A DNA stretch of 63,042 bases, filler included, from 14 parts of 14 records of this genome joined end to end with filler, not necessarily neighbours in it; one strand, 5' to 3'. Shown: positions 31,842-63,042, counted from the whole stretch's first letter. Translations and numbers: made by a program. The notes: generated from the letters alone by a model not told the origin.

Positions 31842-31843
31842 TC

Positions 31844-34075
31844 TCTGTCACGGGCCTGGCCAACGCGGGCTCCGTCAGCACGGGCGGCGCCCTGACAGCC
31901 GGCGCGGTCACGGCCAGCTCGCTGCGTGCGGCAGGCAGCATCACGGCGGCAGGCATGAGCTCGTCGTCCGTGGTGACGGTGGCGGGCCTGACCAACACGG
32001 CCGCCATGACTGCCACCCACGCACTGCTCACAGGCACGCTCAGCGCGGCCGCCCTCAGCTCGGCGGGTGCGGTGAGCGGCGCGTACGTTGCGTCCTCGGG
32101 CCCTGTGACCGCGTCCGGCATGACCACGGCGGGCGCTGTGTCGGTGCTCTCGGTGACCGCCACCAGCACCATCCAGAGCGCGGGCGTTGTTGCGGGCCAG
32201 CACCTGTCCACCGCGGGCACCGTCTCCGCCGCCAATGTGCTGGCCACGGGCGCACTCAGCGGCAACACCGCGCTCGTCACCGGCCTCGCGTCCGCGGGCG
32301 GGCTGTCCACCACGGGCGGCCTGACGGCCAACACGGCGGTGGTGACGGGCCAGCTGCAGGCCGGCTCCATGTCCCTGGGCGCCCTGACCGCGTCCAGCAT
32401 CAGCTCCACGGGCGCGGTCACGGGCGCCTCCATGCAGGTTACCAACCTCATCAGTGCCGGGCAGCTGTCCACGGGCGCCCTCACCGCGGCCTCGCTCAGC
32501 AACGCGGGCAACGTCACCGCCAACTTTGTGTCGGTCACCACCGTCGTGCAGGCCGGCTCGCTGTCGCTGTCCGGCGGCGTGACATCCGCCTTCGAGATCG
32601 TGACCGGCAACCTGCAGGCTGGCTCCCTTAGTGCCAGCGGCGCGCTCATCGCGGGCTCGGCCCAGGCCGCCTCCCTGAGCGCGTCGGGCGCGGTCACTGC
32701 CAACAACGCGGTGGTCACGACACTTCTTGCCACGGCCAGCATCAGCGCGACAGGCACGCTCACGGCGAACGCCGCGTCCGTGACGGGCACGCTGAGCAGC
32801 GGACAGCTGGTGTCGGGCAGCCTGAGCAACTCGGGCGCACTGACAGCCAACAGCACCTCCATCACGTACGGCGTGGTGGCAGGCTCGCTCAGCAGTGCGG
32901 GCGATGTCACCGCTGCCAAGCTGCAGTCCGCCACGCTCACGGCCACCAGTCTGTCGGCAGCATCCATCTCCGCGTCTGGAAGCTTGACAGCCAACCAAAT
33001 CGACGTGACTGGCGTTGCAGTGCTCGGGTCCATCTTCACCGGCGCCCTGACCGCAACCTCCGTGAACTTCACGGGTACTTTGGCGGCATCCTCCGCGACG
33101 TACTCCGGCCACGTGCAGAGTGCATCATTCTCAACAGGACCGCTCACGGCTGGGACGGGCAGCTTCACCGGACAGCTGACGGCCGCGGCTGGCTTCTCCG
33201 CGAGCTTTGCCAACACCGGCGCCTTGAACGCATCGTCCATCATCACGCCCGGAGCGCTCACAGCAAGCAGTGCGCTTGTCAGCAACCTTTTGCAGGCCGC
33301 ATCCCTCTCGTCGTCTGGCATCATCACGGCGGGAACGGGCGCGGTGGCCGGATACTACACCTCGTCCGGGTCGCTGACAGCCAACGCTGTGGTCGCCACC
33401 ACCTCCGTCAGCGGGGCAAGCATCTCCGCCACCGGTGCCCTGACTGCCAACTCCGCCGTGGTGACCAACCTGTTGGTAGCGGGCAGCATGAGCACGACAG
33501 GCACTCTGACCTCCAACACAGCCTCCGTGACAGGCACCATGGTCGCCGGCTCGCTGTCCACGGGCATCGTGACCGCCAGCGGCCTCACCTCCTCGGGCGC
33601 AGTCACGGGCGGGTCGTTCACATCGGCCGGGGCCGTCACGGCAGCCTCGTTCAGCTCCGCGGGCGCCCTGACAGCAGCGGCCGCCACCGCAACCTCGCTG
33701 CGCACAAGCGGCTCCATCACGTCGGCGGGCATGAGCAGCTCGAGCGTGGTGACGGTGGCCGGGCTGACATCCACGGCTGGGCTCACCGGCAGCACCCTCT
33801 CCGTGGCGAACGCTATGACCGCGTCCTCCCTGCAGCTGAGCAACTACATCTATGTGACCAGCATCAGCGCCTCGGGTGCCGTGACAGGGAACTCCGTGGT
33901 CGTTACTACGCTCCTCAACGCGGGATCGCTGACCACAGGTGCACTCACAGCTGGTGCCCTCCAAGCTTCGTCCGTCAGCACCGCGGGAGCGTCCACCGCA
34001 GCCACGGCAGTTGTTACTGGCCTGATGAACGCAGGCTCCGTAACCACTGGCGCCCTGACTGCTGCGGCGTTGCAA
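31844..34075 (+). CDS. Internal fragment (~744 codons, open at both ends) of a large Ala/Ser/Thr/Gly/Val repeat protein, probably a beta-helix or fibre
   Basis: No stop codon across the whole contig; strong GC3 bias; ~11-residue degenerate repeat G(A/S/T)(L/V)TAxSxxxT; almost no charged residues. Confidence 0.8.
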
Positions 34076-49156: not shown

Positions 49157-49272
49157 GTGTGTGTGTGTGTGTGTGCGCGTGCGTGTACGTAGGTGTGTGC
49201 GTGGGTGCGTGTGTGAGTGAGCTTGACCGTGAGTGTGAGTGTGAGTGCGAGTGTGTGAGTGAGTGTGCGTGT
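49157..49272. repeat. (GT)n/(GAGTGT)n compound microsatellite
   Basis: Seen directly. Confidence 0.85.
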
Positions 49273-49379
49273 GAACGCCTGTGTGAAGGAATGTCGTGGT
49301 GTATGGACGTAACAATGCAGTGCGAACCAACAAGAAGACCACAGTGGGCACCAAGCAGGCAACCCGAAAGAACACATAC

Positions 49380-49795
49380 CTTTCCCACCGGGCCTACAAC
49401 CTCGATACACTGGTCGTCAAGCAGAAGCACCGTGTTGTAGGAGGTGACATTCGTGAGTTTCACCTTGGTGCCGGGCGGGATGCGAGTGCTGCAAAGATTG
49501 AGCACACCAGAAACGTCGATGGAAACAAAACGAACCTGAATTTTGACATGTGCTTGTACTCAAGACCCTTTACGATGCGCACGCCGTCAGTTAACTCCAA
49601 CATGAGAACTCGATGCTTTCCGGACTCGGTGGAAGAATAAGATGGTTGCGTGGAATCCACTATCTTAACAATTTCTAAACATAAAGGGCCCGCTATCTAC
49701 ACAGCAAGTCAGCAATCACATATATGGGTCAAGTCGTGGCGTACGACTTTCTTCGCCGCCTTGAACGCCTCGTCGGGGATTGTTGAAAGATCATC
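49380..49795 (-). CDS. Internal exons of an RMI1/TDRD3 N-terminal OB-fold protein
   Basis: Spliced DDLSTIPDEAFKAAKKV|IAGPLCLEIVKIVDSTQP...HRVLMLELTDGVRIVKGLEYKHMSKFS|TRIPPGTKVKL...VLLLDDQCIEVVG matches the RMI1_N-type pattern RxLxLxLTDG-EY-PPGxK-LLL. Confidence 0.8.
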
Positions 49796-50492
49796 CTGGT
49801 CCACACGTCAGCACAACAAGCGCATTACCAATCAACTTGGAACGCACATGAACTGTTTTGATCACTGGCGACGGCGCGTCAGTAGTAGATGGAGCAGACA
49901 TGTACCACACAATGCCTCTACGAAGAAATAGGACTTTTCAAGCTTTCGCGAGTTTCTTGAGACTTTGCACTTGAAATCTTGTTTGTCTGCTGTCAGAGAG
50001 ACAACGCATATGATATCGATATGTTCTGCTGTGCAGCCCGCGCTTCGGCCGTCATATCTACACCAATCATAGTGTGGTTCGTAGTGGACCACGGTATCGC
50101 GAGTCGCTTTCACCACGTTTGCATTGGTAGTTATACATGTAATGGCGCATCTCACACACGCTTATATATACCTCCTACCGAGAATTAACACACAGCCGAC
50201 AACAACGCTGCGCACATCCGAACACAGGCCGAAATAAGTATGAGACGCCATCACACACCAGCGAGCCCATACCACCACATAACAATATAGATACGATAGC
50301 CAAGGCCTCCACTCCTGGCATTCATAAATACACATAGAGGGTTCAAACGAGGAAACCGGAAAACATATTCACACAGCTGCGGAGCACGCGGCCGACGATG
50401 ACCAGTTCTTTCGCCCGCGATTCCGCAGCGCACGCGCAACATATGAAGCCCCCACCCCCCAAAAAAAGCACAACGAAAGATATATACAAAGA

Positions 50493-50516
50493 ACCACCAC
50501 CACCACCACCACCACC
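50493..50516. repeat. (CCA)n trinucleotide repeat just 3' of WD40 gene A
   Basis: Seen directly. Confidence 0.8.
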
Positions 50517-50573
50517 CCTCCTACCCCACTCACACAGTCTTTCTGCATCAGCACACACCCCCTCCCCGCATAT

Positions 50574-51636
50574 CTACCGCAGCTTGATCGCGGCGTCACG
50601 GTACGCCGCACGCCAGTCCATATGCAAGAACTCATCCGGGTCCACGGGGGCCGGCTCCTCCACACGATACTCCCGCGGCACCGGCAGCAGGTACACCATG
50701 CCGTCCCCGCCCGCCGTGCAGAACAGGTTGGAGTGCGGCGGGTTGTACACGGTGTACACCTCATCACGGTGCACGCGCCACGTCCGCACCACCCGCAGCG
50801 AGTGCAGGTCGAACGCCGTGACCGTGCCGCTGCTGTCCGCGGAGAGGACCAGGCGGCCGTCGCGGGAGAACGTCAGGCAGAAGACGTGGTACTGCAGCTG
50901 GGCGACCTGCCCGATGAGCGACCACGACCCCGCCTCGTACAGCAGCACACGCCCGTCGCTGGAGCTGGTCGCCGCTAACGTGTCGTCGTGGTTGAGCGCG
51001 CAGCAGTACGCGATCGCGCTGCGTGCGGCCGGGTCTCGCAGCACAGCCACACACTCAAACCTGCGCTCCTTGTCCAGCACGCACGCGGCACCGTCCGACC
51101 CGGCCGTGGTCACGTACCGCCCACTACGGGAGAAGAACGCGCAAAACACGTGGCACACGGATTGGGGTCTCCCGCGCGACATCCCACACGATCGCAGTGC
51201 CGTCCGCGCTGGCACTGCACGCCAGCTCCCCACTCGGATTGAAATCGCAGCAGTACACCTCGCGCGTGTGGCCCTCTCGTTCCAGTGAGTGCATGATGGT
51301 GCGCGTGTGCAGGCTCCAGATTTGAAGCGGAGCGGGGCCGCTGGACTCGCCCCGCACTGAAACCATCAGCCGTGTGCAGTCGCAGGAGATACGCACGCAG
51401 AAGGCGATGCGAAACCCAGTGTCCAGCAGCGTCTTCAAAGCGCCGGTGCGCGCATCCCATAATGCCACCTTTCCGTTGCGACACGCAGCAGCCACCATCA
51501 AACCATCCGATGAACCGCACGCACTGCTGACGGGCGAGGGGGATATAAAAGAAAGCGGAGGTATAGTCTCGTCATCCCCATCGTCCAAGTCCAGTAACCC
51601 TTCTTCATCACTACTTGCGTACTCACTATCTGTCAT
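50574..51636 (-). CDS. WD40-repeat protein A, coding region intronless, with one frameshift near 51150-51165
   Basis: ORF MTDSEYASSDEE...GHTREVYCCDF...IVWD continues in another frame as HVFCAFFS...VHRDEVY...HMDWRAAYRDAAIKLR*; about seven WD blades in total. Confidence 0.8.
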
Positions 51637-52757
51637 GTCTCGTCCTGCACCCAAAGAATGCGTTAGAATGCTGAGGTTTCCTAGACTGTTTCGCCGCCGG
51701 GATCGCGAATCGATCGATGCGTTTGACAGTCGCCGCTACGAAAACAGGATTATCAGCAACTGACTGCAAACAAAACACAGTATGACGTACCTTTTGACGG
51801 TGGAGATCATGTACGGTCGGCGGGATTCGATGCAACCTCTCCTGGTCGCTCATCACACCCGTATTGGAGAAGGAACACAACAGCACAATGTATAAGATCA
51901 CTCTGCTACACTTCGACAGCAGAAGCAAACAGTAAAGAGTCCGCATCCACTTGGGCTTCCACGTGTCCAATGCGCCTTGGCGAGATCCTCTCAGATCTGT
52001 CAGAACGGTAAGTCAACGTTGCGACTTCTGTCTACAAGGAATCCTTCAGTTTCTGTATCAAGTACAACGGCATGTAGCGGTGGTGATGAAGACGGAACGT
52101 GCTGTGTGCGGTGCCCGCTGGGTCCACCAAGCACGAACTACGAATGTAAACGTACAAAGACACACTATAACAGTTTATCACCGTGTAATCAGACTACAGT
52201 AATATCCTTATCTACAGCAGCGCCACAAAGAGACACCAAATACGGAACCACATGCTGATTGAACGAGAAATCTATACACTACGGAGCACTTACTTACATT
52301 GCATCCATCCTAATAATATATGCATAAGCAACATCACATCGGATAGAATAACATATGAATCGTGCACGCGCAAGCATCTTCCCCCGAGAAGAAACCGCAC
52401 CATAGTTCCCAATCGCAAACACACAACAAAGCGCCCGCGATCGCAATCAACCGGACTGTCAGAACGCAATGAACGATTGGAAATACAACACAGTCAACCA
52501 TGAAACCCGCACGCTGCAGCGTACGCTAATATCAACACAACCAGTTGAACAAACTCCACGAAGAGTGTCCAACGCATGTACATACATCATGAATTCATGT
52601 CACAAGAACCGGAAGAAACTGACAACAAGCAACTCTGTGGAAAGAGCCACGTGCAAACAGCCAGATCAACGCCACGTGAAGATACACACACATCCACAAC
52701 ACATAAAAACAAACGCACACTCACGACCCAGCGTCCTCTGGTAACAGAAAACATAAA

Positions 52758-53353
52758 TCACACACCATACACACGTTCCTTCGCCTCCCGGTACTGCGCA
52801 CGCCAGTCCACATGCGCCACAACATGCCCCAGCTCTTGATCGTCGATATCACCAACCGCCGGCGTATCGTCACAGAACTCACTGGAGATGGCATACACAC
52901 AGCACACATGATCGGAGCTGGCTGCAATGCGGGTCCCGTCGGGGGAGAAGCATGCAGAAAACACCTCACGATCGTGTCGGAAGGTCCCTGTCATCCGCAA
53001 CGTGCTCATGTCCCACAGGATCAGACGCCGGTCCTCGGAGACCGACGCCAAGAGACGGCCGTTCGGGGAGAACAGCACAGAGTAGATGCTCGAGTTGTGA
53101 CCCAGCAGCACGGTCAGCAGCTCGTAGGTGGTGGGGTCGAACAGCCGCACATTGTCGTCCGCACACGACGTCGCAAGATAGCGCCCGTCGGGGCTGTACC
53201 GTGCCCCAAAGCAGACGGTCGCGTGCTCGAGGGCTTTGATGAGTGTGCGGCCGGCAATGTCAAACACACGCACGAACCGGTCTGTACAGGCCACTGCGAT
53301 GCGCTTGTTGTCGCACGAGACGCTCATTGCGAAGACGTGGCCCCCAAACCCCT
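52758..53353 (-). CDS. WD40-repeat protein B, 5'-truncated
   Basis: GHNSSIYSVLFSPNGRLLASVSEDRRLILWD and related blades; ends HVDWRAQYREAKERVYGV*. Confidence 0.88.
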
Positions 53354-53453: not shown

Positions 53454-53585
53454 TTTTTGTCAGCGACAATTTACAGAAGAGAATCGCGGAAACCGCTTCA
53501 GACAAGCCTCCGCAAGGAAAATTAGTCACGACTGAAAGCATTGGCTGGGCGACAAAAAAAGTTCCAGGATTAATCCTAAATTTAC

Positions 53586-54095
53586 TTAATGATACAAATT
53601 AGAGTGAATTTTTAGCCCGGAAAGTTGTCTCGTGGCGTGAGAGGATGCGCTTACCGGACGCATAATAAACCCCATAGCGTTACCTTCATTTGCCGCATCA
53701 ACAAGTTCAGCATGCTCTTCTTCAGTCAAATCATCTGCCAACCAACCGATCACCACACTGTAATTGCCCGTGCGTAAAGCGCGAACCATTGACTCCACAG
53801 TGTGGCAAGGGGAGAGCTGGCTAATCTGCATTACTTTCGTTAAGGGTAGCCCAGATGCCTGAACCCATTCCCGACTCAGTTTTTGTTGCGGTGTTAACCA
53901 GAGTTGCCAGCGCGATTGCTGACCGAGTTGCTGTAACAATGGCAACAGTAGAAGTTGCGTCATCATGGGCTGATCTTCGCGATAGACAACTTCACTGATA
54001 AGCCCGGCTGTAGTGTTTTCCGTAGAGACACGCGCAATTTTACTTGCTGCGGATGAGAACGACGAAGAACGATGTGCATAGCCTGAAGTGTACAT
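53586..54095 (-). CDS. sulA: SOS cell division inhibitor
   Basis: 169 aa MYTSGYAHR...KIHSNLYH (C-terminal Lon degron). Confidence 0.98.
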
Positions 54096-54117
54096 AATCA
54101 ATCCAGCCCCTGTGAGT

Positions 54118-54137
54118 TACTGTATGGATGTACAGTA
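54118..54137. promoter_or_regulatory. LexA SOS box of sulA
   Basis: TACTGTATGGATGTACAGTA (CTG-N10-CAG). Confidence 0.95.
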
Positions 54138-54313
54138 CATCCAGTGACAACAAAGATCAACCCTATTTTCGGAAAGAGCCTCGCAAATTTTGTCGTTGGT
54201 GACGGGAAAACATAAATTAATCTTGCCCCTTAAGAATAAGTTGCCTATTTTCGTAGTTAACGGATCCGTTAATGTGAATCATTCTTTTATGTTATGATTT
54301 TAAAAGGAATTTT

Positions 54314-54943
54314 ATGAAAAGCCTCTCCTATAAGCGGATCTATAAATCACAAGAATACCTGGCAACGTTGGGCACAATTGAATACCGATCATTGTTTGGC
54401 AGTTACAGCCTGACCGTTGACGACACGGTGTTTGCGATGGTTTCTGATGGTGAGTTGTATCTTCGGGCTTGTGAGCAAAGTGCACAGTACTGTGTAAAAC
54501 ATCCGCCTGTCTGGCTGACATATAAAAAGTGTGGCCGATCCGTTACCCTCAATTACTATCGGGTTGATGAAAGTCTATGGCGAAATCAACTGAAGCTGGT
54601 GCGTCTGTCGAAATATTCTCTCGATGCAGCGCTGAAAGAGAAAAGCACGCGCAATACCCGGGAAAGACTGAAAGATTTGCCCAATATGTCTTTTCATCTG
54701 GAAGCGATTCTCGGGGAGGTGGGGATTAAGGATGTACGGGCGTTACGTATACTTGGGGCAAAAATGTGTTGGTTGCGACTGCGGCAGCAAAACAGTCTGG
54801 TGACAGAAAAGATTCTGTTTATGCTTGAAGGTGCCATTATCGGCATTCATGAAGCTGCGCTCCCGGTGGCACGCCGCCAGGAGCTTGCAGAATGGGCTGA
54901 CTCTCTTACGCCGAAACAGGAGTTTCCTGCGGAACTTGAGTAA
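54314..54943 (+). CDS. sxy: TfoX/Sxy competence regulator (CRP-S co-activator)
   Basis: 209 aa; RSLFGSY TfoX_N and LKDLPN TfoX_C motifs; divergent from sulA. Confidence 0.95.
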   Translation: MKSLSYKRIYKSQEYLATLGTIEYRSLFGSYSLTVDDTVFAMVSDGELYLRACEQSAQYCVKHPPVWLTYKKCGRSVTLNYYRVDESLWRNQLKLVRLSKYSLDAALKEKSTRNTRERLKDLPNMSFHLEAILGEVGIKDVRALRILGAKMCWLRLRQQNSLVTEKILFMLEGAIIGIHEAALPVARRQELAEWADSLTPKQEFPAELE

Positions 54944-57059
54944 TCTGGCGTTGCAGACGACCAATCTCAGGCAGTAATGCAATCAATAATCCAACTTGTT
55001 GTACGACCAGAGGTTCTTTGCTGTCTGCCCGTGGTTCAAGTTGCTGCATCCGCTGTTTCAGGCTAGCTAATGCCTCATTGACGCGTTCTTCATCAGCAGG
55101 TTGATGATGTAACGCGTCATCAACATAGCAAACTGCGTCATCAAGAAACGCCAGAATTTCAGGATTAGTTAACTGCTCCCGGTGAGCACCGAGGGCTGAG
55201 ATATAGCTGGTAAACGTATGGTTAAGGCACAGCAACCGAAACGCGGCTTCGCGAATTTGCGGGGTAACGTTCGGCTCGCTGGACATATTTGATACCACCG
55301 ACGCCAGCTCAGCATCACGGTTGTGTGCATCGCGGCGGGCAATACGATACGCCAGACGGTTATCACGCCCCTGATGGTATTGCTCCAGTATGGCATCGAG
55401 ATACCGACAGTTGGCCTCTGTGGCGCGTTCGAGCATGCGCGGCAGATTGCGAAACTGCCAGTCAGGCCAGATGTAGCTCACTGCCGCCCACGCAATGGCA
55501 CAACCAATCAGCGTATCGATTACGCGAGGTAACGCTACTTCAAAACCTTCACCCAGTAAGTTAAAACACAGTAGCACCAAAAGTGTGATGAACATCGTTG
55601 CATGAGCGTATTGCACGTTACGGAAGGCAAAAAAGAGCACGCCGGTAATAACCAGCAGCACCAGCTGCCCTTCCAGTGATGGCACAAACCACAGCACAGG
55701 AATGCCAATGGCGATACCTACCAGCGTACCAATAATCCTTAACTTCAGGCGGTGGCGCGTGGCGTTATAGTTTGGCTGGCAGACAAACAAACTTGTCAGC
55801 AAGATCCAATACCCGTGATGCATTCCGGTTATCTGAATGATGGCGTAGCCGAAGCACAACACCAGCGACATTCTTACCGCATGACGGAAGAGGGCGGATT
55901 CCGGCGTGAAGTGACGGCTAAGACGCAGCCAGATATCACTCAACCCGTGCGGGCTGTCATCAGCGAGCTCATTTTCGTCATTATTATGGGGTAGTGCCTG
56001 GGCCTGTTCTGATTCAATTGTTGCCAGTTGGGCATCAATGGCGCGTAAATTGTTCAGCAAAAATCCCAGTGTTTTGAGTAAATCGGCGGGTGCGCCGTTA
56101 TCGCGCATCCGCTCCAGCGCAGCATCAATATGCGTAAAAGCGCGCTCAAAATGCGGATCATGTTGATAAGGCTGACGCAACAAAATACAGCGTGACAGTT
56201 GCTGGCACGCCTGGCCCTGCATCGACATCAGCCGCTGAAAACGGAACAGCACGTCGCTGTGGCGAAAATGTTCACGCAATGTTTGATACTGAATATGAGA
56301 AGAGCTGGCACGCTCGTGAATATCCTGTGCGACAAAGTAATAATGCAGCGTGCGACGCGTTCCCCGTTGACCACGATCGCCACGTAAGCGGGTCAGCAGC
56401 GAGAGTTTCGTCTGATTCAATGTCGCCATCAGCAGACCGTTGGCGAGAGCCAAATCGTACAGCGGTGCCTGGCTTTGATCTTCAATATCAGGATCAAACA
56501 TGCGCGACTTGAGCTCAAGATAACGCGCCAGTTGTTCATAGCAACGCGCCAGGTTGTCCTGCAGCGGGCGGACCGGGAACAGCAGATGACCAATAAGTGT
56601 CAGGACGTTGTACCAGACGGCACCGGCCAGCAGATACATCGGCTGCTGATACCAGTGCTCATACAGTGATGTTCCCAACATAGTGTAAATGGCGATCAGC
56701 AATGCACCGAAGGCAATTGTTGCATAGCGTTGACCCAGACCGCCGAGCAAAATGAAGCCGCTGGTAGAGAGCGTTAAGCCAATCGCAAATAGCCAGGGCC
56801 AGGGAAACAGCAATTCTACTGAGGCCGAGGCGATAAAAAAGCAGAACAGCGTAATGATGAGGTTACGCAAACGTCCCGCCAGTCGGTCATCGAGATCGGT
56901 CAGCGCCGCTGCCACCATCCCCAGCGTTAGCGGAATCGTCAGTTTTACATCACCCAGCCACCACGGAAACGCTGTGGTTCCACAAAGCGCAATAAAAATA
57001 CGCGCGTAATACAGCCAGGCGCTGTTCCAGGTATAGCGTTTGAGCAAAGGACTTAGCAT
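54906..57059 (-). CDS. yccS: YccS FUSC-family inner membrane protein
   Basis: 717 aa; QDIHERASSSH and YWILLT motifs. Confidence 0.95.
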   Translation of the reverse strand: MLSPLLKRYTWNSAWLYYARIFIALCGTTAFPWWLGDVKLTIPLTLGMVAAALTDLDDRLAGRLRNLIITLFCFFIASASVELLFPWPWLFAIGLTLSTSGFILLGGLGQRYATIAFGALLIAIYTMLGTSLYEHWYQQPMYLLAGAVWYNVLTLIGHLLFPVRPLQDNLARCYEQLARYLELKSRMFDPDIEDQSQAPLYDLALANGLLMATLNQTKLSLLTRLRGDRGQRGTRRTLHYYFVAQDIHERASSSHIQYQTLREHFRHSDVLFRFQRLMSMQGQACQQLSRCILLRQPYQHDPHFERAFTHIDAALERMRDNGAPADLLKTLGFLLNNLRAIDAQLATIESEQAQALPHNNDENELADDSPHGLSDIWLRLSRHFTPESALFRHAVRMSLVLCFGYAIIQITGMHHGYWILLTSLFVCQPNYNATRHRLKLRIIGTLVGIAIGIPVLWFVPSLEGQLVLLVITGVLFFAFRNVQYAHATMFITLLVLLCFNLLGEGFEVALPRVIDTLIGCAIAWAAVSYIWPDWQFRNLPRMLERATEANCRYLDAILEQYHQGRDNRLAYRIARRDAHNRDAELASVVSNMSSEPNVTPQIREAAFRLLCLNHTFTSYISALGAHREQLTNPEILAFLDDAVCYVDDALHHQPADEERVNEALASLKQRMQQLEPRADSKEPLVVQQVGLLIALLPEIGRLQRQITQVPQETPVSA

Positions 57060-57064
57060 AAAGG

Positions 57065-57164: not shown

Positions 57165-57165
57165 G

Positions 57166-60100
57166 ACTACCGTAGTGGACACGCAGCCACCGGTATTTGC
57201 CCCGTTGGCCAACATCACACGCACTTGTTGGTCAGAGCAGGCGCCGTCTGTGGCCTATGTGCTTCCGACCGTGGGTGATGCGTGTGACCCCGCCCCGTAT
57301 GTGTACATCAACAGCGACACGGTGATCGAGAGTGGTGCCTGCCCGGGTGAGCTCGTGGTCGCACGGTCCTACACGGCGGTACGTCTCCGGCCCCTCTGTG
57401 GTAGCATGCGTGTGATGCGCGTGTCCGTACTCGATACTTCAATGTTGTGTTTGTTGTTACAATAAGGCTTTATGAGTAGCACAAGTATATGAGTGCAAAC
57501 TGCATTCTTGGTTATACATGGCTTTGTAACTAAGTGCTGTAGTTGGACGCGTGCAGCAATGCAGCCTCGGCGGTGCAGTACATCCACTACACATGCAGTA
57601 CGTGTTGTGTTGTGTATTTCGCCGGAGGTGTCTGTTCGTTCGTCTCAATTACATGGCCGTTCTGAAGTCAAGTGTACGTGTGAGATGTGTGTCTGTCTGA
57701 ACGGCTCACCCACGACGGCTGCTGTAGGCTGCATTGAGGCTGTCACGCCGCTGTTTTCGACGCTGCGAGGTGGCACACTCTTGACCGTCACGGGTCATAA
57801 CCTGGGAGCAGGTGCGTTCTCCCACAGGGCCGTATACGTTTCCAACTTGACCGTGTTGTTTGATCTGTGTGCGGGTTTTCCAAGCCTCGTATTGTTGTTG
57901 GCTGCCTTTTTCCTGATCTGGTTTCTGTTTTTTTGTGCTAGATCGGGTAGCGGATGTGCTGGTTGCAGGCACACCGGCGCGGATCGTTGCACAGACGCCG
58001 GTAAAAATCACAGCCCTTCTCAGCCCTGTGTCCCAGCCTGCGTCGGGTGCTGTAACGTTGCGCACCGTGGATGGGCATGAAATCAGTTCGGCAGTCACGT
58101 TCCGATACATGCACGGTATGGTGCTCTGACTCGTCCGCACATCTTGCAGTGTTCAACCATTGGCAAAGTCCTCCCAACACACCACCGACACACTATCACA
58201 TGCCCTATATCGGTCTTCGTCATGTGGAATTATGCGTTGACTGCTGTTCTCCGCTGCAGGCTGTGGGCAGGCCCTCCTTCGTGGCACCAGCGGGCAGTTC
58301 CACCCAGGATTTGCGCCGTTCCCCGTGCCCCCCAACGTGGTGTGCAGCTGGGACATCGACGTGGGCACTCAGTCTGACACGCTGATCACGTTCAATACAC
58401 TCGGGCTCGCACCGGGTGATTCGGTACGTCGCAGTCACGGGCCGTGTGACAAATGACTATGTGTGTATGGGTCGTTTGAAATGCTGTCTGACTCCTGTCG
58501 ACGTTGTGTTGGTGGCGCACCTTGCTGCAGATCACCGTCAGCCATGTGGTGGGCAACGAGCTGCACACGCTGCACACCCTCACATCTGCCTCTCTTCCTG
58601 GCTCTATTTCTGTCCCGGGCCCACATGCGCTCATTATTCTGTCCACGGTCAACGAGGCACCTGGCTTCGATGCGCACTGGACGGCAGTTGGTGTGCAAAC
58701 ACCGGTGAACCTGACCGACATGCAGATCTGGGGCGTTTCTGACGGCGACGTGCTTGGTGTCAGCACCGTCATGTACATCATTGCGTTCTTCGATGCGGAT
58801 GTGGTCGACACCCAGCTGCCCTGCGATCCCGTCCTCTATCTCAACCTCCGCCCCGGCAGTGTCCTGTCGACCGCTCGCCTGTTCAACCGCTCGGAGTTTA
58901 ACGCGTTCGCGTCGTACACACGGGATGGGGTGGTGGAACCCCCGGCACCGGCCAACTCACTGGTTTTCGTTCACACGATGGTGGTGGGTGAGCATGCGCC
59001 GCAAGCCGATTTTGGTACCGTGCTCACGCCAAAGGAACGGGCGATGACCTGTGTGCCCTTTGTTACACCGGCGTCGCTTCGCGCCGTCACACTCAGCCCG
59101 ACTGTTTCTGTGCGAACGGGCGGCCCCAGCATCACCAACGTGTTTGCCAGCTCCCCCAATGGGAACTACTCCACGGGTAACGTGATCGACATTGTGGTGA
59201 CTTTCTCACGCCCGGTGGCGTTCATCCTGCCCGATGGCAGCGGCGCCCCTGTTCTTGGTACGTGGCAAACTCTGCGACTTTGTTTGGTTCTTGCGGTGTG
59301 AATACCCTATTCACTAACGTTTGCTATGTGTATAGTGGGGACGCCTGGTTCAGACAGCGGCGGGGCCGCGAACGAACTCTCCCACGGTCACTACGCCGCT
59401 GTAGGCTTTCCTCCGGTGCGTGCGGGCGTACACGGCATGATTCGCGACGAGCACACCTCGGACCAGGGCGGAACTGCCTCCAACGGGGACGGGCTGGAGA
59501 TTGGGGGCAGTGGGTTCCCCGAGCCCCCGCGCGCGCCCATGTCAGCCCTGCGGATCAGTCTGGAGCTGAATTCGGGCGCGGAGTACGTGCGGTGACGCGG
59601 TGACTGTCAGCCGAGGCGTGTCCTCGCATATCACCTTGTACTGTTTCTCACATATTAGCTCTACCTTGATGTCCTCATCGCGGTTGTTCGGTCCTCTGCA
59701 GAGCGTACCTGTTGGGCTATGCTTCCCCTGTGGACCAGCGCCAGATTCTGTTTCGATACGTGGTGGGGCAAGGGGAGAACGCACCTCTGCTGGATGCTGC
59801 CTCGCGAAACGCATTGAGACTGAACGGAGGAAACATTTACGATCAGGCGACTTGTACGTCTTTGTGGACTGCTCATGATCCTGAATGATGTGCTATGGCC
59901 GTATGCGGCGGAGCGTTATTGTCCAACTCTTTCGAATATCTATCGAAGCCGTGTCAATATAGTCCGTTCCTTCGCGCCCTTTTCTTTCGTATGATTGGTG
60001 ATTGTTCTCTGTTCTCACCCTCGCGCGTCCCGCCACCTGCCACCAGATGCTGTAGCGGACGCCGCAGTCCCTGTGGGTGCCATCCCAAGCAGTCTCGCCA

Positions 60101-62933
60101 GTCGCTCCCGTCTGAGTGTGCGCGCTGCGGGTGTCAAGATGCCCCCGCTTGGATACGATGGCCGTGTGGTATGTCGCCTCGATGCGCGCTATGTAACAAG
60201 AGAGACGTGATCCTGTTGCCCCAGCTGTGCGTTTCGTTGCTGTGGTTCTGTGCGCCGTTGACCAGGTTGCTCATTATGCGTCTGCATAGCTACCGGGTGG
60301 ACAGACACGTGCGGCCGCGGTGATACCCGGCAACTGGTCCTACGACGCGGCCACAAACAACCCGTCGGTGGTTCGGGTGGCTGTCACACCACAGGTACGT
60401 TACAGGCATGCGGACACAGCACGATGAGATTTAGTGCACGTTCTTGCTTCCTCAAGTCTTCTGTCGTCGCCACATTTGATACACAGCTGTGAGCTGACTG
60501 CGATGGTGGTTGCCGTGGTAGGTGCTGAGTCTGTACGAGGTCAACGAGCAGCAGCAGACGTTCTATGCGGACATCATTCTGCGGCAGATGTGGTACGACG
60601 CGCGCCTCGAGTCCGCCAACACGGGCAGTGACGGTGCTGTGAGTCTGGGGCCTAATCTGACTGCGGTGGGGTATGCGCCGGTGTGCTGTAACGTATCAAC
60701 AAGCCGTTAGCGTTTGACATTTGTTTGTTCTTCATGGTACATTCCAGCATTGTTCATATCTGTGCTCATGTGCACGCGTGGTGGTTGAGTGTGGATGTGT
60801 GTGTACTTCTGTGTATTTATGGATTTTCTGCGCTTTGTAGATCTGTGGGCCGGATGTTGTGGACGCCTGGGCTCACGTTTGTGAACAACCGGGATCAGCC
60901 AAAGCCTTTCGAGTCGCGTATGGTCATCTACCCGACTGGCATGGTTGAGGTGTGCATTTGTGCCTGTGAACTGACGGCTGCGAGCCAACACGCGTGTGCT
61001 TATGTGTTTGTGCGGAAGATCATGTATTTGTGTTGCATGTGTGGGCGTGGCCTGGACTGTGGGTTTCGTCTCTGCGGATCGCAACTGTGAGGGCATTGTG
61101 ACTGCTTTGCTGCAATATCTCTAACTGTGTGGTACTTACCCTAGCGACTGGATCGGTACATCACCAAGTTCGCAGCTCCCATCAACGCCCGCAACTTCCC
61201 GTTCGACGATCAGAATTTTGACATTAAGGTGCGACAACCTATTCGCTCTGTGTCATCCTGTACCTGTCTGTCCTCATTGCCTAACGTTGATCAACACAGA
61301 TGAGATCCGCCTTTTACAACTCGTCCTTTGTGGTGTTCGCGCTCAACACCTTCGACACCGAGCAGACGAACAACGTGGCCGCGCTGAACGATGCCATCTG
61401 GAGCTTCGATTCGTACTCACAGGTACGCACCTCTCTGCTGTCGGCTCCGACTTGGGTTGCCGTGCTCTGTGGCGCGCTTCTTTGATGACGAGGGTGACGG
61501 CAGGTGGGTTGTGTCCACGCTTTCGTTGTGCGGCTATCCTTATCTCCCGACTCTTGTGCAGCACTCGGTCGTCCCGCCAGCGGGCCTGCTGGGCGGGTTT
61601 CACATCCTCACCACACGCGTGCACGCCAACCGCATCTTCACCTACAACGTAGCCGTGTTCTTCATCCCGCTCGTGCTCATCTTCGCAGCGTCCTACCTCA
61701 GTTTCTTCGTGGCGTTGCGATCGGACAAGCGCTTGACGGTCCCGCTGACTTCGTTGGCTGCAACACTGGCGTTCACGTTTGTGCTGGTGAACCTGTCCCC
61801 GCCTGTGTCGTATATCACACGCATGGCAGTGGCGCTGCTGGTCACCTATGCATTCGTAACCCTCATGCTCATCATACAGGTGCGCTGGGTCGTTGGTTTT
61901 GTGCATCTGTTGTGTTGCGTGAGTTTGTGTGTGTGCGTGTGGTTGTGTTCGAGCGTGGGTGTGTGTCTCTTCATCCATTTCGTTTGTTGCATCGAGTGTT
62001 GTCTCGGCGGGAACACCAAACGCAAGCACATGTGTTCTTTTGCTGTTCTCTCTGTCACTGAACCGGCTGTCATGGCGTGTGTGTGCAGGGTGCTATCATC
62101 CAGATCGCCCTCATTGCCGAGGAGGGGCTGCCCCCCGAACGTATGCGAGCGCGCGGGATGTACCCCTCAGCCGTGTCGGATACGGGCACCCCCCATCCAC
62201 ACGGCCACAAGCTGCACGGACAGAACGCACCCGGGTCCGGTGCGGACCCCAGTCAGCCCGCGTACCTGCAGCCTCGCGAGTCGGATGCGGACGCTAGGGT
62301 ATGTGATGCCTTGTGTTGATGCTGGGGATGGTGTGTGTGTTATACGCCGCACAACCCACCGTGGTTTGTTGTCATTGGCCCTTCGTTTCCTTTCATCCAA
62401 CCTCGCTTCCCCACCCTCCGCGCTGTGCTGATGTGGTTCTGTAGACCGACCACTCGGAAGGTGTTGCGAGCGGGCCTCGTGTGAACGAACGCGGCTCCCA
62501 GCCACAGACGCAGCAGCCCAGCAAGGTTGAGCTGGTTCCTGGCGAGTCGAGTGACAGCGACGAGCCCACGGAGATGGTGTGCTGCGGGAAGATTACGCCC
62601 ATGATTGACCCCAGACGGCGCAAAGTTTGGGTACGTGGGGTTGCGCCCCGTGGGTTGGTTGCGATTGCGGTGGTGGTGGTGGTGGTGGTTGTTGTTGATG
62701 GTGTTGTCTCCTGTCCGTAACAGTGCTGAAGGCACTTGCATGGTGATCACTGTTATTACAATTCACTGGTACCCCTCCTCTCCTTCTCTATCATGCGTGT
62801 TCTCATACTGAGCTTGTGCTTCATCGTTTCTTCTTAGATTGCTCGTCTCCATGCGGCATCGTTCTTGTGCAAGCTTCTGTTACCCATCGCGTATGTTGCA
62901 ACAGCACTGGCTGTCCTCCTCGCGCGGTTCTGA
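57166..62933 (+). CDS. Cys-less pentameric ligand-gated ion channel subunit with large N-terminal extracellular extension (HYR-like, IPT/TIG, CUB, 2x Ig-like); 18 exons, 5'-truncated
   Basis: Exons 57166-57378, 57543-57597, 57728-57811, 57942-58115, 58260-58423, 58531-59257, 59336-59582, 59702-59853, 60047-60168, 60290-60394, 60522-60670, 60841-60949, 61145-61228, 61300-61422, 61562-61879, 62089-62298, 62445-62630, 62838-62933. All introns are GT-AG and phase-consistent; total 3318 nt. pLGIC motifs YEVNEQQQTF, WYDARL, LWTPGLTFVN, FPFDDQ, pre-M1 Arg, M1 Pro, PPVSY and M4. Confidence 0.88.
62669..62696. repeat. (GGT)n/(GTT)n repeat in the last pLGIC intron
   Basis: Seen directly. Confidence 0.8.
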
Positions 62934-63042
62934 GCCGTTGGTGCTGGTGCGTTCCTGTGTATGTCTCGTGGGCGTATATGAGTAAACGTGGCGTCCAGTA
63001 TGTTGATGCACGTTGTCTGCATCAAATGGGCGGCGTTTTTTT

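Follow-up and report, generated by a model that had tools for sequence, protein, structure and literature searches.

Does the 3' end of the stretch of DNA analysed here encode one giant channel subunit with a long ectodomain, or do several unrelated genes only appear to form one? The window, 63,042 nucleotides in length, consists of 14 contigs joined via N44-TTAATTAATTAA-N44 spacers, and the gene in question lies wholly within its last piece (57165-63042; 5.9 kb, GC content 0.57). A preliminary description had assigned this locus to a multidomain, Cys-less ion channel of the pentameric ligand-gated type (pLGIC) preceded by adhesion-type modules. Our analysis indicates that the contig carries one real gene of a microbial eukaryote with a product of at least 1105 residues, in which approximately 640 residues of predicted extracellular modules precede the channel. 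The earlier figure of more than 600 residues upstream of the channel thus agrees with the rebuilt model.

The splice chain was rebuilt independently of the earlier exon list and curated by reading frame, GT/AG sites and domain continuity. An automatic splice search yielded only a partial chain, which lacked the exons for TIG and loop A as well as some of M4, and the curated chain was used instead. The resulting gene is located on the plus strand, is truncated at its 5' end and comprises 18 exons. All 17 introns are of the GT..AG type with lengths of 71-209 nucleotides, and 8 of the 17 carry the donor GTACGT. The spliced model of 3318 nucleotides consists of 1105 codons and the stop codon TGA (62931-62933), contains no internal stop and is compatible in all phases; its frame is already open at 57166, in mid-exon, right at the contig start (57165). 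With its 1105 codons, this independent rebuild is equal in length to the preliminary description, which had proposed 18 GT-AG exons with matching phases and one frame of at least 1105 residues. The exons of the gene have an overall GC content of 0.61 and a GC content at third codon positions (GC3) of 0.73, compared to a GC content of 0.51 in the introns (GC3 0.56-0.85 per exon; GC 0.44-0.60 per intron). This difference in composition supports coding.

An exhaustive HMMER search with exon 15, which encodes M1-M3, over 1.84 billion representatives (E <= 1e-3) revealed 59 relatives. When four of them were compared with the raw contig by tblastn, which is independent of the gene model, collinear plus-strand matches were obtained on exons 6, 8, 9 and 11-15, and the ends of these matches coincide with the modelled exon borders. 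On the minus strand only two weak matches were detected (E 0.16 and 0.44). Furthermore, 13 exon junctions were analysed in 13 relatives by gap-free alignment over residues -4 to +5. Eight junctions were supported by 8 to 13 of the 13 relatives, namely those between exons 7/8, 9/10, 10/11, 12/13, 13/14, 14/15, 15/16 and 17/18. The joins of exons 6/7 and 11/12 were supported by none of the 13 and that of exons 16/17, which lies inside the variable cytoplasmic loop, by 4 of 13, and the join of exons 5/6 is covered by no relative among the 13. The join of exons 8/9 also received no gap-free support (0 of 13), as counted with the exon 9 acceptor at 60056. Because this acceptor leaves a 3-residue gap compared to the relatives, it was rejected and the acceptor was set at 60047, which closes the gap and gives better blastp E-values.

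Two joins are uncertain. Exon 7 can be read in a long (59336-59582) or a short form (59546-59582), both of which are in phase; a short-form start at 59552 was rejected, as there is no AG before it and the phase-compatible AG acceptor leads to 59546. The extra part (59336-59545; 210 nucleotides, 70 residues) is open, in phase and Gly-rich, and the composition on 59336-59551 (GC 0.70, GC3 0.76) is exon-like. Inserts at the same site are present in the relatives P0005 and P0029 and absent from P0001, the closest relative. The extra stretch may represent either a loop specific to this lineage or a segment subject to alternative splicing. At the join of exons 11/12, the model carries an insertion of 8 residues that the relatives lack. 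On reading the sequence, two alternative donors of exon 11 were rejected: GTGAGT is out of phase with the sole acceptor, and GTCCGC matches poorly and would remove 20 residues.

The C-terminal part of approximately 460 residues is predicted, from its sequence, to be a complete Cys-less (Pro-loop) pLGIC subunit, in which the ligand-binding domain is followed by M1-M3, a loop of approximately 120 residues and M4. The ligand-binding domain (60290-61624; residues ~647-857) extends over exon 10 (60290-60394), exon 11 (60522-60670), exon 12 (60841-60949), exon 13 and exon 14 (61300-61422) into exon 15, which starts at 61562. Pfam scores were determined exon by exon. Consecutive pieces of Neur_chan_LBD (PF02931; cut-off 26 bits) were detected in the right order on exon 11 (profile positions 36-64, 19.3 bits), exon 12 (81-114, 12.9 bits) and exon 13 (119-143, 14.4 bits), and all 16 of the 16 relatives scanned exceed the cut-off of this family. 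This is in line with an extracellular beta-sandwich ligand-binding domain homologous to PF02931. M1-M3 (61625-62130; residues ~858-956) lie on the remainder of exon 15, which ends at 61879, and on the first part of exon 16 (from 62089). A phmmer search of the PDB with exon 15 retrieved 108 different sequences with E <= 1, and all 60 among the matches listed are pLGICs; the best match is ELIC-type (E 6e-5) and aligns from pre-M1 to M3, with GABA-A and GluCl chains also being matched. Exon 15 alone matched Pfam PF02932 at E 0.064, and its region matched the NCBIfam entry LIC at E 4e-4, which is far under the cut-off of that entry.

The cytoplasmic M3-M4 loop (62131-62852) extends, in the spliced model, from exon 16 (62089-62298) through exon 17 (62445-62630) into the beginning of exon 18. 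No Pfam family was detected on exons 16-18 even at E <= 10, and the equivalent stretch of P0001 has a predicted local distance difference test score (pLDDT) below 50. M4 and the stop codon follow in exon 18 (62838-62933) at 62853-62933, and M4 could be aligned in 11 of 13 relatives. Four hydropathy peaks are located at the positions expected for M1-M3 and M4, as in a four-helix channel domain. The Pro-loop (beta6-beta7), read in exon 13 (61145-61228), contains the motif FPFD, which can be aligned with the corresponding loop in the proton-gated channel GLIC and is near-invariant in the relatives, so that the conserved proline is retained. At the two Cys-loop positions, which flank this motif at a spacing of 13 residues, Ala and Phe are present. 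Relatives carry Ser, Thr or Ala and Phe or Leu at these positions, and the Cys pair is absent there too. Cys-loop receptors are defined in PMC11085791 by two cysteines bounding a 13-residue loop, and in this strict sense the protein falls outside that group. Because Ala and Phe replace the cysteines and the loop proline is kept, it belongs to the Pro-loop (Cys-less) class. The ordered Pfam pieces, PDB matches, blastp matches to relatives and hydropathy therefore corroborate the complete pLGIC subunit of the preliminary description, the reading of exon 13 confirms that both Cys-loop positions are replaced, and every motif quoted there is present in the rebuilt model.

The residues before M2 are Asp-Lys-Arg, and the Asp, located two positions before the M2 arginine, is conserved in most relatives. 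According to Tasneem et al. 2004 (PMC549065), an acidic residue followed by Arg or Lys indicates cation channels and Ala followed by Arg or Lys anion channels. The conserved acidic residue together with this rule suggests that the pore is probably cation-selective. The M2 register was taken from an ungapped alignment with ELIC, for which the M2 arginine and the proline and tyrosine of the M2-M3 segment served as anchors; in this register Leu at 8' and Thr at 6' are conserved.

Directly before the channel lie two domains, here termed X and Y. Domain X (58696-59085; residues ~286-415), which blastp and AlphaFold delineate as a conserved, putatively Ig-like beta-sandwich, occupies the middle of exon 6. 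Domain Y (59086-60168; residues ~416-646), the second candidate Ig-like domain, was traced by alignment and tblastn over the 3' end of exon 6, exon 7, exon 8 (59702-59853) and exon 9 (60047-60168). It contains a Gly-rich insert of approximately 75 residues, within which the extra part of exon 7 falls, and ends in a conserved PP-x-GYD linker motif just before the ligand-binding domain. Seventeen of the 59 relatives have an M1 match that starts at residue 350 or beyond (up to 2299), compared to ~180-260 in solved channels. P0001 is a transcript open reading frame (ORF) of Colponema vietnamica with 806 residues and P0030 an MMETSP transcript with 748 residues, both flagged complete. Five relatives are Cyanophora paradoxa gene models (P0032, P0002, P0003, P0006 and P0026; 1019-2611 residues), and the remaining ones are environmental or metagenome contigs, some of which are single uninterrupted ORFs.

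In blastp, the spliced model matched P0001 over residues 548-1093 (E 2e-77) and 278-472 (E 4e-13), and P0028 at E 3e-67. Significant blastp alignments reach into domain X (below residue 420) for 9 of the 59 relatives (P0001, P0028, P0029, P0005, P0018, P0014, P0032, P0003 and P0041). Family-invariant residues and the core motifs of the ligand-binding domain are kept both in the channel gene and in the relatives. Judged by these comparisons, the X-Y-channel core is a conserved architecture common to Colponema, Cyanophora, the MMETSP transcript and environmental contigs. No Pfam domains were found in the extension of the 16 relatives scanned. P0001, P0030, P0029 and P0028 have short hydrophobic N-termini directly before domain X, which would fit a signal peptide followed by an extracellular extension. 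Word-based protein searches with exons 15 and 6, which covered longer proteins only and are weak evidence, gave no match at E <= 1e-3.

An AlphaFold model of P0001, based on 39 aligned relatives, reached a mean pLDDT of 81.9 and contains two N-terminal beta domains at residues ~25-175 and 181-314 as well as the ligand-binding domain and the helices; the region equivalent to domain Y is predicted as a beta-sandwich with a pLDDT of ~90. The model of exon 6 of the window gene with 11 relatives had a pLDDT of 75.5, with values of 85-97 over domain X. A Foldseek search with this exon 6 model returned weak Ig-like matches (Fab chains and the C-terminal domain of sulfite oxidase) with E ~1e-3 and a TM-score of ~0.25, which is consistent with domains X and Y being Ig-like beta-sandwiches. 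For the two Ig domains proposed earlier, the predicted fold is hence backed by AlphaFold, and the likeness to Ig comes from these weak matches. Searches with exon 6 by sequence gave no Pfam family for the whole exon or parts of it even at E <= 10 and no match in the PDB. In the ESM Atlas the best scores were 0.76 and 0.75, below lead level, and in a metagenome scan 127 patterns matched, among which tblastn confirmed no relative. For the Cyanophora relatives, which are gene models and not transcripts, fusion artefacts are possible. In one of them, P0032, two separate regions each match exons 6 and 8 of the window gene; this pattern suggests a tandem duplication of domain Y.

Domains X and Y are preceded by further modules. 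A Cys-containing N-terminal module is encoded by exons 1 and 2 (57166-57378 and 57543-57597; residues 1-90 of the splice chain), with the start codon and signal peptide located beyond the contig. A TIG/IPT domain split by an intron follows on exons 3 and 4 (57728-57811 and 57942-58115; residues 90-176). Positions 2-26 of the Pfam profile PF01833 match exon 3 with E 2.5e-4 and 21.4 bits, a marginal pass of the cut-off of 20.9, and positions 34-84, the rest of the profile, match exon 4 in the right order (E 0.16), which bears out the TIG domain of the preliminary description. The next module is a probable CUB domain (residues ~177-285), which is split by a phase-0 intron between exon 5 (58260-58423) and the beginning of exon 6 (58531-~58695, ~55 codons). 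Exon 5 matches positions 1-48 of the 110 positions of the Pfam profile PF00431 (E 0.014; 16.1 bits, cut-off 21.4); in the PDB it matched CUB domains best, namely those of procollagen C-endopeptidase enhancer 1 (E 7.6e-4) and of enteropeptidase. On exons 7, 8, 9, 10 and 14 no Pfam family was detected even at E <= 10. Residues 1-300 of the model found no match among the 59 relatives; the TIG/CUB front end therefore appears, on sequence comparison, to be unique to this gene among the relatives retrieved.

Taken as a whole, we consider it likely that the locus encodes, as one gene, a Cys-less pLGIC subunit that is gated through its canonical ligand-binding domain and carries outward arms as modulators or anchors. 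Five subunits would form a plasma-membrane channel with five N-terminal arms projecting outward. Opening would probably occur via the canonical ligand-binding domain in response to a small ligand or ion, because the core motifs of this domain are conserved. Connected to the channel via a variable linker and the PP-x-GYD motif, the arms would modulate or anchor it as tethered elements that could bind matrix, cell-surface or macromolecular partners and thereby tune gating or placement. By analogy, they would probably tune the channel as the N-terminal domain of DeCLIC does.

Several observations weigh against this interpretation. The gene model is derived from genomic sequence, its 5' end lies beyond the contig, and the signal peptide and topology are derived from relatives. 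The join of exons 5/6 and the preceding exons have no homolog support and are based on phase, composition and domain continuity. For the N-terminal module, which had been labelled HYR, exon 1 gave no Pfam family at E <= 1 (including HYR, PF02494), no PDB sequence at E <= 10 and no NCBIfam entry; a HYR-like motif can be recognised by eye only, and we have abandoned the label. Pfam and PDB sequence searches did not recover the CUB domain's second half, expected at the start of exon 6, so that this assignment from the preliminary description is probable and is based on the first half. Within the channel, the exons of the ligand-binding domain and of the transmembrane region are singly below the Pfam cut-offs. 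Furthermore, position 9' of M2, normally a conserved leucine, is Ala here and Ala, Gly, Ile, Leu, Phe or Thr among the relatives, which may point to unusual gate or pore properties or to a register shift of one residue. Finally, the linker between arm and ligand-binding domain is variable, and in the P0001 model it is disordered (residues 336-387, pLDDT < 50). This argues for loose tethering and against rigid allosteric coupling.

The latter observation also bears on a speculative alternative, akin to the contact gating proposed in the preliminary description, in which the ectodomain is the primary sensor, so that a macromolecule, the surface of prey or of a mate, or a mechanical pull on the arms would open the pore and the canonical pocket would be a vestige. 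Both TIG and CUB belong to the extracellular modules that typically bind proteins or glycans, and the X-Y pair, like the PP-x-GYD motif, is conserved beside the ligand-binding domain. In addition, Colponema, the source of the closest relative, is a predatory flagellate. However, a variable linker that is predicted to be disordered in P0001 speaks against such gating, the family-wide conservation of the core motifs suggests that the canonical domain is under selection, and the TIG/CUB part is absent from the relatives. We therefore regard gating by the ectodomain as improbable compared to gating by the canonical domain.

Considerably less probable still is that two neighbouring genes were misjoined, one (exons 1-5 or 1-9) for an adhesion protein, either secreted or anchored, and the other for a channel of ordinary size. 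A splice model for 5.9 kb that was predicted without a trained model can err, and exons 1-5 are those without counterpart in the 59 relatives. Nevertheless, the TIG domain is split over exons 3/4 and the CUB domain over exons 5/6, and the uninterrupted exon 6 of 727 nucleotides runs from the end of the CUB domain through the whole of domain X into domain Y. Domain Y in turn continues through exons 7-9, and the 3' end of exon 9 bears the linker motif that is conserved before the ligand-binding domain. On these grounds it can be argued that the TIG/CUB modules and the channel are one gene and not two. A split between exons 5 and 6, where the intron measures 107 nucleotides, would divide the CUB domain between two genes. 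There is also no stop, start context or gap of more than 209 nucleotides between exons, and X-Y and the channel are found on one transcript ORF in Colponema and in the MMETSP transcript as well as on single metagenome ORFs. An equally slight chance is left to a decaying pseudogene or assembly chimera from which no protein is made, as the short contig with its missing 5' end, the E. coli pieces in the mixed assembly, the 8-residue insertion at exons 11/12 and the insert of approximately 75 residues in exon 7 might suggest, since 1105 codons without a stop over 18 exons, a GC3 of 0.73 against an intron GC content of 0.51, retained family-invariant residues and the inserts of P0005 and P0029 at the exon 7 site all speak against it.

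Compared to known channels, the one-gene subunit with canonical gating combines traits of several groups. Cys-less pLGICs of unicellular eukaryotes have already been reported, in a study that trimmed 'extraneous domains' and urged work on architectures (Jaiteh, Taly and Henin 2016, PMC4795631). Like these protist channels, the window gene is eukaryotic, lacks both cysteines, keeps the loop proline and encodes a ligand-binding domain followed by four helices; it differs in its main feature, the N-terminal extension, which is conserved across lineages. Extra N-terminal domains have also been described in prokaryotic pLGICs (PMC9897478; PMC549065), and the N-terminal domain of DeCLIC is described as influencing gating kinetics. 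DeCLIC-type channels (PMC9897478; bioRxiv 10.1101/2025.02.27.640520; PMC549065) share the beta-rich domains between signal peptide and ligand-binding domain and the Cys-less channel, whereas the long cytoplasmic M3-M4 loop belongs to the window protein.

The model of P0001 matched a DeCLIC chain first in Foldseek, followed by GABA-A and glycine receptors (TM-score ~0.7, root-mean-square deviation 2.1-2.8 A). The family profile searched against the PDB gave sTeLIC (1e-62), then ELIC (~1e-57), DeCLIC (1.6e-57) and glycine receptors, and its match to DeCLIC is limited to the channel part, chain residues 329-606. With the match confined to these residues and DeCLIC missing from the list of 50 Foldseek matches to the exon 6 model, homology of the extension to the DeCLIC domains NTD1/NTD2 was dismissed as unsupported; a remote similarity in fold to the N-terminal lobes of DeCLIC is possible. 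The closest solved channels, both by the family profile and by the M1-M3 exon, are sTeLIC and ELIC (PDB 6fl9 and 2vl0, among others), which differ in being bacterial, ~320 residues long and devoid of an N-terminal extension or cytoplasmic loop.

In animals, LEV-10, NETO and SOL-1 are separate CUB auxiliary proteins that act in trans and control the clustering or gating of ligand-gated channels. They resemble the predicted protein in that a CUB ectodomain is tied to a ligand-gated channel and differ in that the CUB-like module here would be located within the subunit itself.

A 2026 preprint describes N-terminal domains as a prokaryotic and cytoplasmic M3-M4 loops as a eukaryotic trait, and the channel literature considered here presents eukaryotic pLGICs without an N-terminal add-on. 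The window gene and its relatives from Colponema, Cyanophora and a marine transcriptome would be eukaryotic subunits with both N-terminal domains and a cytoplasmic loop. A literature search, whose coverage excluded subscription journals and supplements and in which the alignment of Jaiteh et al. may list long relatives, found no paper on the X-Y-channel clade and none linking pLGICs with Cyanophora, glaucophytes, Colponema or EukProt, or with an N-terminal extension, algae and Ig-like domains; on CUB domains or ectodomains, Jaiteh et al. was the only related paper. The sequences of the relatives are public and apparently undescribed. The architecture had been presented earlier as unrecognised. 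This holds for the TIG/CUB front, which has no counterpart among the 59 relatives, and not for the gene as a singleton, as the X-Y-channel core is shared. The novelty thus lies more in the conserved eukaryotic clade than in the single gene.

For such a clade it is of interest whether channel and extension were inherited together or the extension is a later addition. It would also offer a natural system for the coupling of a large ectodomain to a conserved gating machinery, and bears on what pLGICs sense in cells without nervous systems. A bolder proposal, which we view as doubtful, is that an ancient eukaryotic pLGIC clade with an Ig-like pair and a cytoplasmic loop recruited TIG and CUB modules in this gene, whereby contact with a macromolecular or cell-surface partner would directly gate or position the channel. 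If true, it would constitute an ionotropic 'contact receptor' of protists, in which the function of the animal CUB auxiliary proteins acting in trans is built into the subunit.

Several observations concern other pieces of the window. The piece directly before that of the channel (53454-57064) shows 100% identity to E. coli yccS-sxy-sulA and matches 5426 of the 5426 E. coli genomes searched. Since this E. coli piece and eukaryote-like pieces occur within one window, the assembly behind it is a mixture of organisms. The piece at 31842-34075 has a GC content of 0.69, with several frames open across its full length, and its plus-strand reading of 707 residues matched no Pfam family at E <= 0.001. 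On the minus strand of the piece at 49157-53353, three open stretches with WD40 repeats were detected (Pfam E 1e-14 to 1e-29), which look as if they were exons of one multi-exon gene. The ends of this WD40 piece carry CA/GT microsatellite runs, and the piece and the channel contig may share a source organism.

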